Below, piece after piece: positions 29,232-40,547 of a stretch of 64,000 bases of DNA; within the stretch, counting starts at the first letter, position 1, and each line of letters opens with the position of its first letter. Origin of the DNA: Myxococcota bacterium (GTDB taxonomy: Bacteria > Myxococcota_A > UBA9160 > UBA6930). Location: the NCBI GenBank assembly GCA_965223705.1, contig OZ245015.1, positions 135,106 through 199,105 on the forward strand, written 5' to 3'. The translations under genes were made by a program, and so were the position numbers. The notes beneath the pieces were generated by a model that saw nothing but the letters and a program-made list of their open reading frames with translations, was not told the DNA's origin and made no database searches.

Positions 29232-29361
29232 CGCCAACGGAGTTGCGGCTCAGTGGGTCCGCCGACCTGAGGGCGAGATTCTGCCGATACCGCTGGTTAA
29301 GGCACAAGACTAACGAACTAGAGAAGAGCAAAGGCGGGTCCGCTGTAGCCGCTGGTTAGAC
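29232..29361 (-). repeat. attC 1
   Basis: CCAAC...GTTAGAC imperfect palindrome, family sequence. Confidence 0.9.
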
Positions 29362-29898
29362 GGCAAGCTCCAACTCGCCGCCCGCTATCACCTCGGGCGT
29401 CGTCGCGTCTCCGGGTCCAAACTCGAGGGCGCCAGAAGCCAGGTACAAGACAACATTGCCTGGCGAGTAGAGGTGCCAGATTGGATCGCCCGGCCCAAAG
29501 TCGGCATACCTCTGCGTTTAAACCACAAAGCCGAATTCAAACTTGAATATGAATTCACCCCGTGTCGGGGAAGCTCCGACCGTCTCGAGCTTTGCACCAT
29601 CGAGTCTAGATAAGGCCCGGGATATGGTCTCGTTGTCCGATTCAGAGTGCGCGAGTTCCGTAGATTGCTCGCGAAGCGACCAATCACATTGCTCAATCCA
29701 CAGATGGTGATCACCGCGAACTGTGACCAAACGCCTGCGCAGGTACTCGCGACGAGAGTCGGGAACAGGTTCGCGAATTTCTAGATGAGGCTGCCCGGAG
29801 TCGAATGTGATGAAGGAGCTGTAACCCCGTTGCGCGTTCCAGCAAGGGAGCCCAGATAAGCTGCCGAAACTCGCGCTCAGGAGGTCCCTGGCATCCAA
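29356..29898 (-). pseudogene. Cassette gene with an internal TAA (29518-29520)
   Basis: Frame continues after FVV* to a TAA inside the attC R'' core. Confidence 0.65.
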
Positions 29899-29916
29899 AG
29901 TACGCCCTTGCCTGCC

Positions 29917-30052
29917 GTCTAACGGAGATGGCGCTCAGCTGCGAGCCACAGTGCCTCCGTGGTTCGAGCAAAGCACCAGAGTTACAATGCCAGAGCGTAA
30001 AAGAACCCGGTTTGACAAGCTGTGGCTCCTCAGCTGCAGCGCCTTGTTAGAC
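29917..30052 (-). repeat. attC 2 (divergent type, belongs to the TA cassette)
   Basis: GTCTAAC..GGCGCT-CAGCTG / CAGCTG-C-AGCGCC..GTTAGAC. Confidence 0.85.
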
Positions 30053-30079
30053 GGTGTGCTCCCGGGGTCAGAAGGAACG

Positions 30080-30316
30080 ATGGGCAAAGCGGGACAGAAG
30101 GTGCTGGACGAAGCGCTGCAACTCGAACTCTCAGAACGAGCGGAGCTTGCGGCGGAACTGCTCGCAAGCCTCGACGGCGAACCGGACGAGGAGGCCGAGG
30201 CGGCTTGGGCTGACGAAATCAAGCGCCGGCTCACCCGCGCTCGATCTGGCGCAGATGAGGGAAGGCCCTGGCCAGCCGTTCGAGATGCGGTCAAGGACGC
30301 ATTGAACAACAGGTGA
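30080..30316 (+). CDS. Putative addiction-module antitoxin (inverted cassette)
   Basis: AL.L...ERAELA..LL.SL, AW..EI.RR; GAAGGA RBS. Confidence 0.85.
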   Translation: MGKAGQKVLDEALQLELSERAELAAELLASLDGEPDEEAEAAWADEIKRRLTRARSGADEGRPWPAVRDAVKDALNNR

Positions 30317-30627
30317 CTCCTAGCGTTCGCATCAGTGAAGAGGCTGAAGCCGAGGTGGCTGAGTCGGCTCGCTGGTACGAGACAAACCGAGCGAACTTGG
30401 GCGCAGAGTTCCTCGAGGCAGTTGACCTGGCAGTAGATCGAGCCGCAACGAACCCCGCGGCGGGTTCACCGGTGCCGGGTGTTGAAGACGCGGCTGTTCG
30501 CCGGTGGCCGGTACGCCGTTTCCCGTATCACGTTGTGTACGTCGAGCTCCCCGACCGTCTTCAGATTCTCGCTGTGGCGCACGATCGCCGACGCCCCGGA
30601 TATTGGATCGGTCGGCTGCCAAGCTGA
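30313..30627 (+). CDS. RelE/ParE family toxin
   Basis: A..E...A.WY, RRFPY.VVY, ILAVAH.RR.PGYW; 4-nt overlap with the antitoxin. Confidence 0.9.
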   Translation: MTPSVRISEEAEAEVAESARWYETNRANLGAEFLEAVDLAVDRAATNPAAGSPVPGVEDAAVRRWPVRRFPYHVVYVELPDRLQILAVAHDRRRPGYWIGRLPS

Positions 30628-30775
30628 CGCCCGAACATCCGTCTAACGGAGTTGCGGCTCAGTGGCCCGCCGACCTAATGGCGAGATTCCGCCGACACCG
30701 CTGGTAAGGGACCAAGACTAACGAACTAGAACCGAGCTAAGGCGGATCCACTGCAGCCGCTCTTATGATGCGATC

Positions 30776-30980
30776 CGTGATGAAATGAAGCGGCCGATGA
30801 GCACAAGCCACGTGCCCACCGGCCTTCATAGGGAGCGGTAGGCCGAAAGCCAAGAGGTCCCTTGCGAGACCGTTAACAAGCTCGGGTCACCGTTCCCGTT
30901 GCCGCAGCGAAGCTCGAACGATCGCTTGGGCCGCCCGGAGGCGAGCCCGTATTTGAGAGCCCGAGTTCGTTGTACCGGGA
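30776..30980 (+). ncRNA. Predicted bridge RNA (copy 1)
   Basis: Three stem-loops; guides match donor and target (see findings); ends approximate. Confidence 0.75.
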
Positions 30981-30988
30981 AGTTTATC

Positions 30989-31904
30989 ATGGCCCCCTGC
31001 ATTGGAATCGATGTCTCGAAGCACACCCTCGACTGGAGCTCCGGCTCCAAAGGTCGCATCCAGAGCACCCGCAACGTCCCCCGATCAATCGCAGCCCTCG
31101 TTCGCCGACTCTCTGCACTCCGTCCAAAACGAATCGTGGTGGAGTCCACCGGCGGCTACGAACGGCAGCTCGTTCTCAAGCTCGCTGAGGCGAAGCTACC
31201 CGTCGTTGTGGTGAACCCGCGCCGAGTGCGGAGTTTTGGAGAGGCGGTGGGATGTCTCGCCAAGACCGATCCCATCGACGCTCGCCTCTTGTCCCAGTTC
31301 GGCGAGAAGGTAGAACCGCCGCTTCGTCCGATCGTCGAGGGTAGAGAGCGTCTCCTGGCAGACCTTGTCGCGCGTCGCCGGCAGTTGGTCTCCATGGTCG
31401 TCGCCGAGAAGAACCGACGCGAGTGTGCACCCGCCGCGGTTCGCCGATCGATCACCGCCGTGCTGAAGATGCCAACTACGGTCCATCGACGGGCAGATGG
31501 AAAAGATCCTCGACGAAGACGCAGAACGAGCCGAGCTGTCGGGGCTCCTGCAAAGCGTCCCCGGTGTAGGACCGGGTGTCGCACGCACGCTGCTCATCGA
31601 CCTACCCGAGTTGGGTCACCTGGGGCGTCGAGAGATCGCGTCTCTCGTCGGGGTCGCTCCCTTCGCACGAGATAGCGGAATGTTACGGGGGTCACGACGA
31701 ATCCGCGGAGGTCGTGCCTCGGTACGCACTGCGTTGTATCTCGCGGCGATGACCGCTTCCCGCTTCAACCCGACTCTTCGAGGTGTCTACGAAAGACTTC
31801 GCGCATCGGGGAAGCCGCCGAAGCTCGCCTTCGTCGCTATCGCTCGAAAACTCCTCGTCATCCTCAACGCCATCGCTCGCGACCGCGTCGCCTGGCAGCC
31901 CTAA
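30989..31904 (+). pseudogene. IS110 recombinase, frameshifted
   Basis: GAAGATGCCAAC versus GAAGATGCTCGAAGGCCAAC in the intact copies. Confidence 0.9.
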
Positions 31905-39004: not shown

Positions 39005-39307
39005 AGGAGCCCGTAACGACAGGCCGCAAAAGCTGCAGGTTGGGCGGCCGACCCACGCGCCGAGCCACCTCTTGCCCCTGACCCCGAAGAAGTACTTCTC
39101 GCACTTAGGACAGCGCGCATTGGATAGGCCGAACTGCTCAACGAACGTAAACAGCCCGCAGCCAAAGCCCACTACGAATACTGGCGCGGCAACTATCTCG
39201 GGCAGCACAAAGGCCGAGAAAAGGCAGCCAGTGAAAACCCATCCGCACAACCGGTAGCGATTCCATCTTCGCCTGAGAATCTCGAGCGCTTCAGATTGGC
39301 TGTCCAA
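38999..39307 (-). CDS. Cassette two-TM protein with C-terminal Zn-ribbon
   Basis: CPKC...CSFC; stop inside the attC core. Confidence 0.7.
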   Translation of the reverse strand: MDSQSEALEILRRRWNRYRLCGWVFTGCLFSAFVLPEIVAAPVFVVGFGCGLFTFVEQFGLSNARCPKCEKYFFGVRGKRWLGAWVGRPTCSFCGLSLRAPA

Positions 39308-39328
39308 GCTTGGGAACGCCTGCTGTCT

Positions 39329-39458
39329 GCCTAACGGAGTTGCGGCTCAGTGGGCCCGCCGACCTAATGGCGAGATTCCGCCGATGCCGCTGGTAAGGGC
39401 ACAAGACTAACGAACTAGGACTGAGCTAAGGCGGGTCCACTGCAGCCGCTGGTTAGAC
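39329..39458 (-). repeat. attC 12 (same as attC 4)
   Basis: GCCTAAC...GTTAGAC. Confidence 0.9.
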
Positions 39459-39465
39459 GGCGCCA

Positions 39466-39858
39466 CTACTCGGGCGGTTGCTCCAGTAGTGCGAGAAGCC
39501 CACACGCTACAACAACCAAAACCGCTACAGCAGCTGCAAAACCGTAGGCGAACCGAATGCCCCCGCCGGCCGATCCTTCTAGCGCCATAGCGATACCGAT
39601 TACAGCGATAGCAGCGGCAGAGACCCCGGGCAGGAGGCGTCTCGCGAGACGAGAACGCTTGGATCGCGCGAGCAGCTGGGCCTGCGTCAGGCCTTCTCGG
39701 GCGAAGACCAGTGGGGCGATAAAGATAGTTCCGGCTCCAAGAGACGCGAGCACGACCAGGAATGGAGCGCCTGTCAGAAGGCCACCGACGGCTAATGCGA
39801 ACATTAAGCAGCCGACGAAGCCGGCGAACGCGATCGCTGTTCGTAAGAGTGCGTTCAA
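39466..39858 (-). CDS. Cassette membrane protein (duplicate of 32616-33008)
   Basis: Identical 130-aa ORF. Confidence 0.75.
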   Translation of the reverse strand: MNALLRTAIAFAGFVGCLMFALAVGGLLTGAPFLVVLASLGAGTIFIAPLVFAREGLTQAQLLARSKRSRLARRLLPGVSAAAIAVIGIAMALEGSAGGGIRFAYGFAAAVAVLVVVACGLLALLEQPPE

Positions 39859-39870
39859 CTCGTTGCGTCC

Positions 39871-40000
39871 GTCTAACGGAGATGCGGCTCAGTGGGCCCG
39901 CCGACCTAAAGGCGAGGTTCCGCCGACACCGCTGGTAAGGGCACAAGACTAACGAACTAGAACCGAGCTAAGGCGGGTCCACTGCAGCCGCTGGTTAGGC
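39871..40000 (-). repeat. attC 13
   Basis: GTCTAAC...GTTAGGC. Confidence 0.9.
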
Positions 40001-40417
40001 GGCATACGACCTCGAAGGACGTAGCGAGCGAAAAGCCAACCGAGGCCAAACTGCTGCGAGGCCTGGGAGAAGTGAATAGAGATAGGGGCTGCCCGTTTGA
40101 TAGACGAGCGGAAACGTACAGACAGCTGCGACGACGGCGGGCACAAGGAAGGGCGCAACGCCGGGCTTCTCGAGAGAAACCGATCGTCTGGAAGCAACCC
40201 ACCAGACGCTAACAGCTAGGAAGCACCCAACGACGCAGAGCGTGACGCCAAGAAGAGTGAACACGACAAACAGTTCAACAAGCTTGCCTGCTGACGCCTC
40301 GAACTGCCCGTTCGATAGAAGCCAGAATGCGCGCAGAAGCGCTACTGCAGCTCCGAATACGGCTGGGGTGGCCAGCCCTGACCACAGAAACCACCGAATG
40401 GCTGAGCCGACTGACAT
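39995..40417 (-). CDS. Cassette membrane protein
   Basis: Four TM segments; ATG 5 nt from the core; stop inside the attC core. Confidence 0.7.
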   Translation of the reverse strand: MSVGSAIRWFLWSGLATPAVFGAAVALLRAFWLLSNGQFEASAGKLVELFVVFTLLGVTLCVVGCFLAVSVWWVASRRSVSLEKPGVAPFLVPAVVAAVCTFPLVYQTGSPYLYSLLPGLAAVWPRLAFRSLRPSRSYAA

Positions 40418-40421
40418 GTTC

Positions 40422-40547
40422 GCCTAACGGAGTTGCGGCTCAGTGGCTCGACCTGATGGCGAGAGTCCGCCGATACCGCTGGTAAGGGCACAAGACTAAC
40501 GAACTAGAACCGAGCTAAGGCGGGTCCACTGCAGCCGCTTGTTAGGC
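40422..40547 (-). repeat. attC 14 (first cassette; small internal deletions; unoccupied perfect IS target)
   Basis: GCCTAAC...GCAGCCGCTTGTTAGGC. Confidence 0.9.

Follow-up and report, generated by a model that had tools for sequence, protein, structure and literature searches.

An IS110-type element in a chromosomal integron and its probable RNA-guided insertion into attC sites

The IS1111-attC group (ISPa21, ISPst6, ISKpn4, ISPa25) reportedly owes its original descriptions to Tetu and Holmes in 2008 and to Post and Hall in 2009. PMC3001079 describes its members as inserting close to the 5′ (R″) attC end, in antisense relative to the cassettes; by the account in PMC11187229, the attC target is chosen by a seekRNA matching both strands. 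Group IIC-attC introns also insert near the attC 5′ end in antisense and recognize the site through RNA, according to PMC3001079, and ISPpu10, an IS110 element, gains specificity from a stem-loop in its target, according to the preprint 10.64898/2026.03.19.712850. An RNA-guided insertion sequence (IS) in attC is already a known kind; here it is an IS110-type element with the bridge RNA upstream of the transposase gene (tnp), found in a window of 64,000 nucleotides (the whole stretch of DNA analysed) from a Myxococcota bacterium.

The element shares with the IS1111-attC group a site- and orientation-specific insertion near the attC R″ end, antisense to the cassettes, together with a probable RNA-guided choice of the attC target, whereas the members of that group have the guide RNA region downstream of tnp and carry subterminal inverted repeats. 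Antisense insertion near the attC 5′ end and a presumptive recognition by RNA are also common to this element and the group IIC-attC introns, yet the latter are retroelements, equipped with a ribozyme and a reverse transcriptase, and bear no relation to it in mechanism or sequence. As in ISPpu10, at least as the preprint presents it, the target is structured and repeated, and base pairing may be joined by a structural determinant, although the reading of the attC hairpin by our element is conjectural and proposed only because its left target guide (LTG) matches poorly. The likeness to IS621 and ISCro4 extends from the recombinase family to a left end that is non-coding and has two internal loops, a CT core, a right target guide (RTG) at the first loop's 3′ side that would form pairs with the core and right flank on their top strand, a left donor guide (LDG) identical to right end plus core, a discontiguous right donor guide (RDG) with a G.T pair, and a −35/−10 pair split over the two ends. 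It differs from IS621 in that the RTG pairs over 7-8 nt against the natural 4 nt of IS621, and from both IS621 and ISCro4 in that the target is an integron attC and the LTG is complementary at 4 internal positions only, not at the core.

The integron and its three IS copies

The array and the integrase gene lie side by side:

29233..40547, minus strand: cassette array with 14 attC sites, from motif scan and nhmmer
41156..42160, plus strand: intI, encoding an integron integrase of 334 aa, oriented divergently to the cassette array

The intI product scores 448.7 bits against the NCBIfam integron integrase model TIGR02249 (cut-off 265) and also matches Pfam Phage_integrase and Phage_int_SAM_4. 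The minus strand is the reading strand of the cassettes and the plus strand is the bottom (folding) strand of attC; hairpins are predicted at attC14 (z −3.1) and attC13 (z −2.7). An nhmmer profile built from 13 of the 14 sites and run on the whole 4.56-Mb genome recovers those 13 and nothing else above noise, the divergent attC2 appearing at E = 7.3; outside the array, no attC is found in the genome. An intI gene with the TIGR02249 signature and adjoining attC hairpins identifies the locus as an integron of the sedentary chromosomal type. One cassette, which contains attC4 and attC12 in its two copies, is duplicated at 96.7% identity.

Within the array lie exactly three copies of a 1.18-kb IS110-type element:

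30760..31928, plus strand: IS copy 1, in attC3; 99.3% identity over 1178 bp; left flank GCAGCCG-CT, right flank CT-TGTTAGGTGG
34727..35903, plus strand: intact IS copy 2, in attC8, with the CT core at 34727-34728 and 35902-35903; right flank TGTTAGGCCG
37194..38370, plus strand: IS copy 3, in attC10; identity to copy 2 100%; GTAGCCG-CT on the left, CT-TGTTAGACAG on the right
34956..35879, plus strand: transposase/recombinase gene of copy 2, 307 aa, with Pfam, NCBIfam and PDB matches
35883..35888, plus strand: −35-like TTGACT at the right end of copy 2, read from the sequence

BLAST finds no further copy in the genome; all three lie in array attCs and none at an unrelated target. They share orientation and position (GCAGCCG-CT/IS/CT-TGTTAG), with the CT core at both junctions of every copy (GCCG-CT-CTTATG on the left, GATCG-CT-TGTTAG on the right). 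In copy 1, an 8-bp deletion frameshifts the transposase, which tblastn splits into two frames, and the ends and the bridge-RNA region are intact.

The recombinase carries the Pfam domains DEDD_Tnp_IS110 (PF01548, 64.2 bits) and Transposase_20 (PF02371, 57.2 bits), reaches 191.8 bits against NCBIfam NF033542, “IS110 family RNA-guided transposase” (cut-off 140), and has as relatives in the PDB ISCro4 (9t56, 1.8e-37) and IS621 (8wt6, 2.2e-33), the stretches IGIDVSK, ESTGGY, KTDPIDA and RDSG being conserved in the alignment to ISCro4. Upstream of tnp, 229 nt are non-coding, against 24 nt downstream; since a long non-coding region upstream of tnp, with a short one downstream and an absence of terminal inverted repeats, is given in PMC11187229 as the mark of IS110-type elements, we assign the element to this type. 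An IS1111-type identity was rejected on the same layout, with the non-coding region upstream and only 24 nt after the stop codon. The recombinase domains, the non-coding layout, the CT core, the donor loop and the RTG all agree with the IS110 type; the LTG does not.

When the two ends are joined, TTGACT is followed after 17 nt by a −10-like TATGAT (34731-34736), which in the circular form would constitute a junction promoter of the sort described for IS621 in PMC11208158, and from which the bridge RNA would be transcribed.

The predicted bridge RNA and its guides

The guide geometry used here follows the descriptions in PMC11208160 and PMC11208158; coordinates refer to copy 2:

34729..34955, plus strand: bridge-RNA-encoding left-end non-coding region; MFE fold, z −3.1
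34812..34822, plus strand: 5′ arm of the target-binding loop (LTG position), GAAAGCCAAGA, from comparison with the left half of the target (LT) plus core
34823..34838, plus strand: hairpin within the target-binding loop, GGTCCCTTGCGAGACC, from the relatives' alignment
34840..34848, plus strand: RTG, UUAACAAG, complement of CT+TGTTA(G)
34885..34893, plus strand: LDG, ACGAUCGCU, 9/9 identical to right end plus core, ACGATCG-CT at 35895-35903
34918..34926, plus strand: RDG, AUUUGAGAG, discontiguous pairing with left-end CT-CTTAT

The predicted RNA consists of a 5′ stem-loop, a target-binding loop and a donor-binding loop, and its consensus structure over seven relatives has 47 pairs, ten of them with compensatory changes; no Rfam family matches the region. 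The hairpin GGTCCCTTGCGAGACC is nearly invariant in the seven aligned sub-clade members and in further members of the sub-clade. In the donor loop, the RDG would pair as AU-UU-GAGAG with CT-CTT-AT, including one G.T pair, after the scheme given for IS621 in PMC11208158.

In the fold common to relatives, the RTG lies in the first internal loop, on its 3′ side, and forms seven Watson-Crick pairs and one wobble with the target in all three copies. Its last C stands at the handshake position and complements the G preceding the core in the donor right end. The 8-mer TAACAAGC, which the first-pass annotation had named as the guide, equals the RTG plus one handshake base; it sits at the bridge-RNA loop position, and the comparison with relatives given below bears it out.

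That annotation weighed one of two target guides, the other being the LTG, which does not match attC. Against the target LT plus core, GCAGCCGCT, the LTG GAAAGCCAAGA is identical only at AGCC (4/9, with 0/2 core bases), and the canonical two-arm reading consequently fails for this element. Among 59 loci compared in this way, 42 relatives match at no fewer than 7 of 9 positions, and three, this element included, at four or fewer; the other sub-clade members listed carry CT at the LTG core position, except G014 (UC) and the G005 stump (UA). The right half-site seems to carry most of the targeting, with possible help from the attC hairpin, a suggestion prompted solely by the poor LTG; that the element is a natural case of transposition resting on the right half-site alone is conceivable but rather unlikely. 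The genome holds 31 CTTGTTA sites, eight of them in the array (three junctions, attC14, attC2 and three occurrences in the DNA encoding the guide); none of the other 23, which match the left guide at two or fewer of nine positions, carries the IS, and the 7-nt right guide by itself is therefore insufficient.

Occupancy of attC alleles and guide-flank pairing in relatives

The attC sites vary in the first flank base, adjacent to the core, where the guide would meet either T or G:

39983..39999, plus strand: attC13 target GCAGCCG-CT-GGTTAGG, an example of the seven G-allele sites, from sequence match and motif scan
33775..33782, plus strand: attC6, GCTTGTTG, T at the first and G at the fifth flank base; empty
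36551-36558, plus strand: attC9, GCTTGTTG, T at the first and G at the fifth flank base; empty
40530..40546, plus strand: attC14 target GCAGCCG-CT-TGTTAGG; empty, identical to the occupied sites
30036..30050, plus strand: attC2 target GCAGCGC-CT-TGTTAGA, core at 30043-30044; empty, full RTG match

The G allele, GCTGGTTA, stands at the R″ end of seven sites (29351, 32598, 33140, 34282, 38994, 39448 and 39990), the remaining four of its 11 matches lying inside attCs. GCTTGTTA is found at the empty attC14 (40537) and at the three right IS junctions (31926, 35901, 38368), where its G derives from the IS right end (..GATCG-CT) and the target supplies CT-TGTTAG; its minus-strand matches (30874, 34841, 37308) are the guide itself within each IS copy, and an additional match at 54359 is unoccupied and not an attC.

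Motif scan, nhmmer and BLAST reproduce the first-pass tally of sites by class and occupancy, and part of what was built on it needs revision. The annotation took single-base variants as escaping insertion; this is very probable for the T/G base, which relatives indicate is read by the guide, and improbable for the GCTTGTTG sites, where the guide would form only a G.U wobble with the fifth flank base. Of 66 natural insertions, 10 leave this base unpaired and one more has it in a wobble pair; the GCTTGTTG sites consequently probably remain targets. Likewise, attC2 had been set aside as a non-target: its left half differs from the other targets, and its right half fits the 7-nt guide perfectly. 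The claim of one perfect empty target is right about attC14, with attC2 as a second empty site that fits.

By hand arithmetic, the chance that three insertions all fall in the four GCTTGTTA sites among 14 is 4/364 = 0.011, rising to 10/364 = 0.027 when attC2 is counted as fitting and to 35/364 = 0.10 when T at the first flank base defines the class (7/14 sites). The within-genome association with T sites is weak (p about 0.01-0.1, depending on class definition) and suggestive only; the evidential weight comes from the comparison with relatives.

Across 66 related loci with 16 distinct flank 5-mers, scored over the core plus five flank bases (seven positions), the RTG pairs with the flank at 7/7 in 49, at 6/7 in 15 and at 5/7 in two, against an expectation of only 0.9 of 66 at 7/7 when flanks are swapped between loci; the relatives are not phylogenetically independent (L220 and L223, for example). 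Mismatches by flank position number 0, 2, 0, 5 and 10 from RT1 to RT5, and at RT1, which adjoins the core, all 66 loci are paired. Within the sub-clade, elements with the A guide lie at CT/TGTTA (the three copies described here, L203, L001 and L111, the L001 insertion being the same one seen in L100 and L114), and elements with the C guide, UUAACCAG, lie at CT/GGTTA in all three cases with a known right junction (L220, L223 and G014). The L220 and L223 elements are both intact and close kin; that of G014 consists of two halves 100 kb apart, with guide and right junction on separate halves, and may not represent one common insertion. The right junction is known for seven distinct elements of the sub-clade, and in every one of them guide and allele agree. 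Insertion in antisense at one position near the attC R″ end recurs in L001, L082, L187, L111, L181, L203 and L213. The loop position, the guide-flank covariation, the pairing at RT1 and the C-guide relatives together support the 8-mer as a genuine guide that reads the T/G flank base.

We consider it likely that the element inserts into attC by RNA guidance through its RTG. A DEDD/serine recombinase acting with the left-end bridge RNA would recombine the element into attC between the R″ and L″ boxes, antisense to the cassettes; the RTG, 5′-UUAACAAG-3′, would pair with the top strand CT-TGTTA(G), the LTG would meet the left half at AGCC alone, without pairing to the core, and exchange at the CT core would yield the left junction attC..GCAGCCG-CT-CTTATGA and the right junction ..ACGATCG-CT-TGTTAG. 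The seven GCTGGTTA sites would present an A.G mismatch to the guide at the first flank base and, since this position is paired in every natural insertion examined, are very probably poor targets, which would explain why 3/3 copies occupy T sites. Judging from sequence comparison, the G allele itself may block insertion.

Selection, structure and recombination as alternative readings

A stronger reading would make the alleles products of an arms race, in which attC spacers and IS guides co-evolve: G would spread as immune to the A-guide IS, and IS lineages would answer by a switch from A to C, the C-guide lineages then arising or invading. The array is rich in G (7 of 13 family attCs; among the empty ones, seven G against three T), 60 related genomes contain exact GCAGCCGCTTGTTAG 19 times and GCAGCCGCTGGTTAG seven times, and both guide alleles occur naturally with one and the same attC family, an LT of GCAGCCG-CT being combined with the guide UUAACCAG in G014 and in the G005 stump. 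Yet both attC alleles also occur in related genomes in which no IS was found, the G allele for instance in G030, G051 and G018 (76-83% complete), where a DNA search finds none; the base lies at the edge of the unpaired spacer, a place expected to drift; the G sites lack independence, as attC4 and attC12 belong to the duplicated cassette; and the change of guide could be plain tracking of a locally common allele. We regard such co-evolution as rather unlikely; if true, integron recombination sites would be under diversifying pressure from RNA-guided parasites.

Recognition of attC by shape or via protein, with the T/G base irrelevant and its association with T due to chance, would accommodate the largely unmatched left guide and the modest within-genome p, and it has a precedent in the target stem-loop that gates an IS110 element in the account of preprint 10.64898/2026.03.19.712850, but it is quite improbable in the face of RT1 pairing in every natural insertion and of the complete guide-allele agreement in the sub-clade. 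Spread of the copies by homologous or integrase-mediated recombination of IS plus flank, which would make occupancy uninformative on target choice, draws on the identity of copies 2 and 3 and on a left-flank variant, GGATCC, common to copies 1 and 2 within 50 nt of identical flank, and is hardly credible given that the right flanks of all three copies diverge directly after TGTTAG, that the left flank of copy 3 differs (GGGTCCGCTGTAGCCG), that neighbouring cassettes are unrelated, and that public-run contigs add two right junctions absent from the assembly, also at TGTTAG, albeit with short joint sides (26-29 nt). Alongside RTG-guided insertion, the GGATCC variant, present in the occupied attCs 3 and 8 and in no empty attC, is a hint that recombination has caused some spread or homogenisation.

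An IS110-type element in the attC array

The integron of the window is chromosomal, with an integrase gene that scores 448.7 bits on TIGR02249 (cut-off 265) and encodes Pfam Phage_integrase and SAM-like domains, the window plus strand being the attC bottom strand. Three of its recombination sites (attC3, attC8 and attC10) are occupied by an IS110-type insertion sequence with a bridge RNA in its left end, a repeat of 1178 bp located by a genome-wide repeat search.

29233-40547: 14 attC sites, left of the integrase gene (motif scan)
30759-31928: insertion sequence, copy 1
34726-35903: insertion sequence, copy 2
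37193-38370: insertion sequence, copy 3
41156-42160, plus strand: integron integrase gene

A profile built from 13 of the attC sites recovers those 13 and nothing more above noise in the 4.56-Mb genome, with the divergent attC2 reached only at E = 7.3, and long hairpin folds were obtained for attC14 (z -3.1) and attC13 (z -2.7). The unoccupied attCs read GCAGCCG-CT-[T/G]GTT[A/G]G, the base directly right of the CT core defining a T and a G allele. The first-pass annotation had observed that the seven G-allele sites, both TGTTG sites (attC6 and attC9) and attC2 are all empty, and that the remaining four sites are occupied in three cases and empty in attC14. This observation was confirmed, and the genome-wide tally of insertions gives three copies, all in this array. 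Because an insertion sequence entering an attC splits the hairpin and locks cassettes in position, such elements shape integron evolution.

One cassette and its attC are duplicated within the array (32479-33148 and 39329-39998, with attC4 and attC12; 96.7% identity over 672 nt), so that the G-allele sites are not all independent. The cassette between attC2 and attC3 (30054-30627) holds a pair of small ORFs of 83 and 104 aa that overlap on the plus strand, opposite to the array direction, which we take to be the usual look of a putative toxin-antitoxin cassette. The motif GGATCC lies in the left flanks of copies 1 and 2 (30745-30750 and 34712-34717) and is absent from the other 12 attCs, which mostly have GGGTCC; attC3 and attC8 do not differ over their final 50 nt. 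By our own arithmetic, the chance of both GGATCC carriers falling among the three occupied sites is 3/91 = 0.03, and gene conversion outward from the element or relaxed constraint on split attCs are possible explanations.

Copies 2 and 3 are identical, and the transposase of copy 1 is broken into two frames by an 8-bp deletion. The 307-aa transposase carries DEDD_Tnp_IS110 and Transposase_20 domains, passes the NCBIfam model "IS110 family RNA-guided transposase" (191.8 bits versus 140), and matches the solved recombinases ISCro4 (1.8e-37) and IS621 (2.2e-33). Non-coding DNA extends over 229 nt upstream of the start codon and 24 nt downstream of the stop, a layout that is IS110-type and not IS1111-type by the criterion found in passages of PMC11187229.

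In all three copies, the left junction reads attC..[G/T...]AGCCG-CT-CTTATGATG.. and the right junction ..CACGATCG-CT-TGTTAG.., so that comparison of occupied with empty attCs identifies CT as the core, GCAGCCG (GTAGCCG in copy 3) as the left target and TGTTAG as the right target. In the string GCTTGTTA, previously read at the occupied sites, the G belongs to the end of the element and not to the target. Once the ends are joined, TTGACT (35883-35888) would come 17 nt from TATGAT (34731-34736), a predicted junction promoter of the kind that passages of PMC11208158 describe across the joined ends of IS621.

Two smaller traces lie nearby. At 40578-40600, within cassette 1 and 31 nt right of the empty attC14, there is a 23-nt exact copy from the left end of the element (GATCGCTT together with the initial 15 nt of the donor-loop hairpin; element positions 162-184), with similarity stopping on both sides. 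This fragment is the sole one of its kind in the genome and may be a relic or a product of template switching or capture. About 1 kb past the last attC, at ~28120-28230, are the decayed remains of an IS110-type relative, which retain a stretch resembling a 5' stem-loop together with the 16 initial transposase codons (75% identity over 16 aa, 88% over 57 nt) and lack both guide loops.

The bridge RNA and its right target guide

Folding of the left end gives a 5' stem-loop followed by two internal-loop modules (z -3.1), and a fold common to seven sub-clade members comprises 47 pairs, with compensatory changes in 10. The second loop contains ACGAUCGCU (34885-34893), corresponding to the right end plus core, and AU-UU-GAGAG (34918-34926), which pairs with the left-end CT-CTT-AT, one of the pairs being G.T, as for IS621. 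On the 3' side of the first loop, G-UUAACAAG-CUCG (34839-34851) supplies the right target guide (RTG), with UUAACAAG forming seven Watson-Crick pairs and one G.U with CT-TGTTAG in all three copies. The C that follows lies at the IS621 handshake guide place and complements the G ending the donor's right end; thus, the guide proposed in the first-pass annotation, TAACAAGC, is the RTG, whose covariation with the flanks holds in 66 loci, extended by a last base that is a handshake base. Rfam, a library that may not include a bridge-RNA family, gave no match to 28000-43000 with E allowed up to 1. The 5' arm of the target loop (34812-34822, likewise in copies 1 and 3) contains CCAAGAG, the right donor guide (RDG) motif of relatives; this motif, AUCCAAGAG, occurs in six related loci (L001, L111, L179, L181, L205, L220), and the donor loop of this element has UUGAGAG instead. 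Coincidence or exchange between loops may account for it.

Evidence for the guide comes from 80 transposase-related loci with 46-61% identity. A recognisable right end was present in 73 of 81 sources, this element counted, and 66 of these also had a left-end donor guide and at least five flank bases. When the 7-mer ~41 nt upstream of the donor guide is set against CT and the five adjoining flank bases, 49 of the 66 loci pair at 7/7, 15 at 6/7 and two at 5/7, versus 0.9 of 66 reaching 7/7 in a control where left ends were given the flank of a locus with a different flank; in this set the flank 5-mers are of 16 kinds and the guide 7-mers of 19. Flank position 1 is never mismatched (0/66), and the mismatches lie at positions 2 (two loci), 4 (five) and 5 (10), so the base that distinguishes the T and G alleles is the sole flank base always paired. 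On this comparative evidence, we consider it quite likely that insertion is RNA-guided and allele-specific, with the allele read by the right guide.

The proposal that single-base attC variants escape insertion is narrowed by the same data. At the TGTTG sites, flank position 5 would meet the guide U in a G.U wobble; this position is unpaired in 10 of the 66 natural insertions, and these sites are probably not protected; the only credible escape variant is the G adjoining the core. Nor is attC14 (GCAGCCG-CT-TGTTAGG) the sole perfect empty target, as had been claimed: attC2 (GCAGCGC-CT-TGTTAGA) equals it by the right guide, so that two fitting sites are empty, and the left half of attC2 is that used by the related loci L203, L001 and L082.

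Guide alleles and attC alleles among relatives

Members of the sub-clade with the same loop hairpin occupy attC sites in other genomes and metagenomes. A metagenome scan with the 17-nt hairpin returned 119 matching stretches, ~6 of them true bridge-RNA contexts (L100, L114, L111, L179, L181, L187) and the others chance; a genome-collection scan with the A-guide 16-mer returned at least 117 stretches, with a bridge-RNA context in three among the matches listed, all already known.

Table. Right target guides and insertion sites of this element, related loci (L) and related genomes (G). Columns: source; left target and core; RTG; right flank.
This element, 3 copies; GCAGCCG-CT (copy 3 GTAGCCG-CT); UUAACAAG; TGTTAG
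L203; GCAGCGC-CT; UUAACAAG; TGTTAGG
L001 (L100 and L114 are the same insertion); GCAGCGC-CT; UUAGCAAG; TGTTAGG
L111; GCAACGG-CT; AUAACAAG; TGTTAGG
L220, intact; GCATCCT-CT; UUAACCAG; GGTTATG
L223, intact; GCATTGG-TT; UUAACCAG; GGTTATG
G014, left half; GCAGCCG-CT; UUAACCAG; right end of this kind in G014, CT then GGTTAGC
G005, stump; GCAGCCG-CT; UUAACCAG; none
L205; off contig; UCAACAAG; off contig

Guide and flank agree in 7/7 distinct elements with a known right junction, with A opposite T in four and C opposite G in three, which is not a formal test because the elements are kin (L220 and L223 close kin). The guide of L205, UCAACAAG, is the complement of CT-TGTTGA. In G014, the left target GCAGCCG-CT belongs to the attC family of the window, and the single right end of this kind, followed by CT and GGTTAGC, lies ~100 kb from the left half with another repeat between, so the halves may not be one insertion. 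These halves (L218/L219; G014:C1:2535700-2538200 and 2435000-2437500) are on the same strand, right half first, and each abuts a copy of one repeat (876 nt or longer, 100% identity), an arrangement suggestive of rearrangement or amplification with a different mobile element at the boundaries.

The reprogrammed guide that had been suggested for a plasmid assay occurs in nature, at the predicted allele. This natural matched pair on one attC family (guide A/C with target T/G) provides bridge recombinases with a specificity test that already exists, and gives an entry to asking whether such elements shape attC variation. Occupancy against allele was counted in this genome, G043 and G014 having too few attCs and copies. 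An arms race between element and attC, as first proposed, is attractive since both guide alleles are known, and beyond that it is not supported. Across 60 related genomes we counted 19 exact 15-mers of the T allele (15 in G018) and seven of the G allele (G014 three, G030 two, G018 one, G051 one). A DNA search found relatives of the element in 10 of the 60 genomes but not in G018, G030 or G051, whose completeness of 76-83% leaves absence unproven; the G allele is thus present where this element was not found. It is commoner in this array than in relatives, the sites being few and partly duplicated.

Passages of PMC3001079 give site- and orientation-specific insertion near the attC R'' end, antisense to the cassettes, as the hallmark of the IS1111-attC group, and passages of PMC11187229 report that RNA makes the attC choice, with ISKpn4 and ISPst6 as demonstrated cases and ISPa25 as a predicted one. 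The present element shares the attC place and RNA guidance with this group, but its RNA region precedes tnp and so places it outside; with a 5' bridge RNA, it operates in the manner of IS621. This is not a new kind of system; rather, RNA-guided attC choice, known for the IS1111 type, extends to the IS110 type at the same place. In titles, abstracts and selected passages of the literature, we found neither an IS110-type attC-targeting lineage nor guide alleles matched to attC alleles.

The left guide and the sampled population

The first loop of relatives carries on its 5' side the sequence of the left target plus core, with at least 7/9 positions matching in 42 of 59 loci and both core bases in 35 of 59, and most left target guide (LTG) arms of the sub-clade have CT at the core position, such as GAAAGCGCCUG for GCAGCGC-CT. 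The LTG of this element, GAAAGCCAAGA, fits GCAGCCG-CT by AGCC alone (4/9) and by neither core base, where a fully fitted arm would match GCAGCCGCU. On the same attC family, left-target pairing extends to six or five bases for the arms of G014 (GGUAGCCGUCG) and of the G005 stump (GAUAGCCGUAG), with a wobble at the core C. Judged against its family, this element thus has a degenerate left guide. Recent movement is argued for by the identity of two copies together with the different flanks of all three.

Two other readings of the left guide were rejected: GCGGCCGAU of the 5' stem-loop resembles the left target and lies within a conserved stem, and pairing of the left guide with the opposite arm of the attC hairpin, examined by hand, gives only six pairs with a 2-nt bulge. 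A composite target fitting both arms unchanged (AGCCA..TGTTA and variants) has no site in the genome. The right guide alone is insufficient, since 23 further CTTGTTA sites in the genome are free of the element; at flank position 6, only three of these carry A or G, and none of the 23 exceeds 2/9 against the left guide. According to two preprints, IS621 recombination in vitro can be supported by one matching half-site plus core (10.64898/2026.08.31.748434), and a target stem-loop increases the specificity of ISPpu10 (10.64898/2026.03.19.712850). By analogy, either effect may operate here. Should the element be truly active, its poor left guide bears on the current half-site recombination debate.

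Four public runs (X1-X4) of one study, with a mixed sample, were aligned to 36400-41100 as contigs, which drop rare variants and would not reveal minority insertions at attC14. Three runs contain a right junction not present in the assembly, ..CT-TGTTAG followed by GCCTAACGGAG.., with joint sides of 26-29 nt, and one contig contains another, ..TGTTAG followed by CTATTCGTCC.., with 255 further letters; both carry TGTTAG again, a hint given short sides and a mixed sample. One contig breaks off in attC13 (G allele, at 39992) and continues 23 letters into the left end of the element; since attC3 and attC8 lie outside the stretch compared, it is most simply an attC3/attC8 junction contig placed with one mismatch. 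Contig depth over the element (37185-38440, X1-X4), which is not copy number, is 4.2-5.2x that of neighbouring cassettes versus 3 by assembly, and together with the two extra right junctions it suggests that the sampled population may hold more copies of the element.
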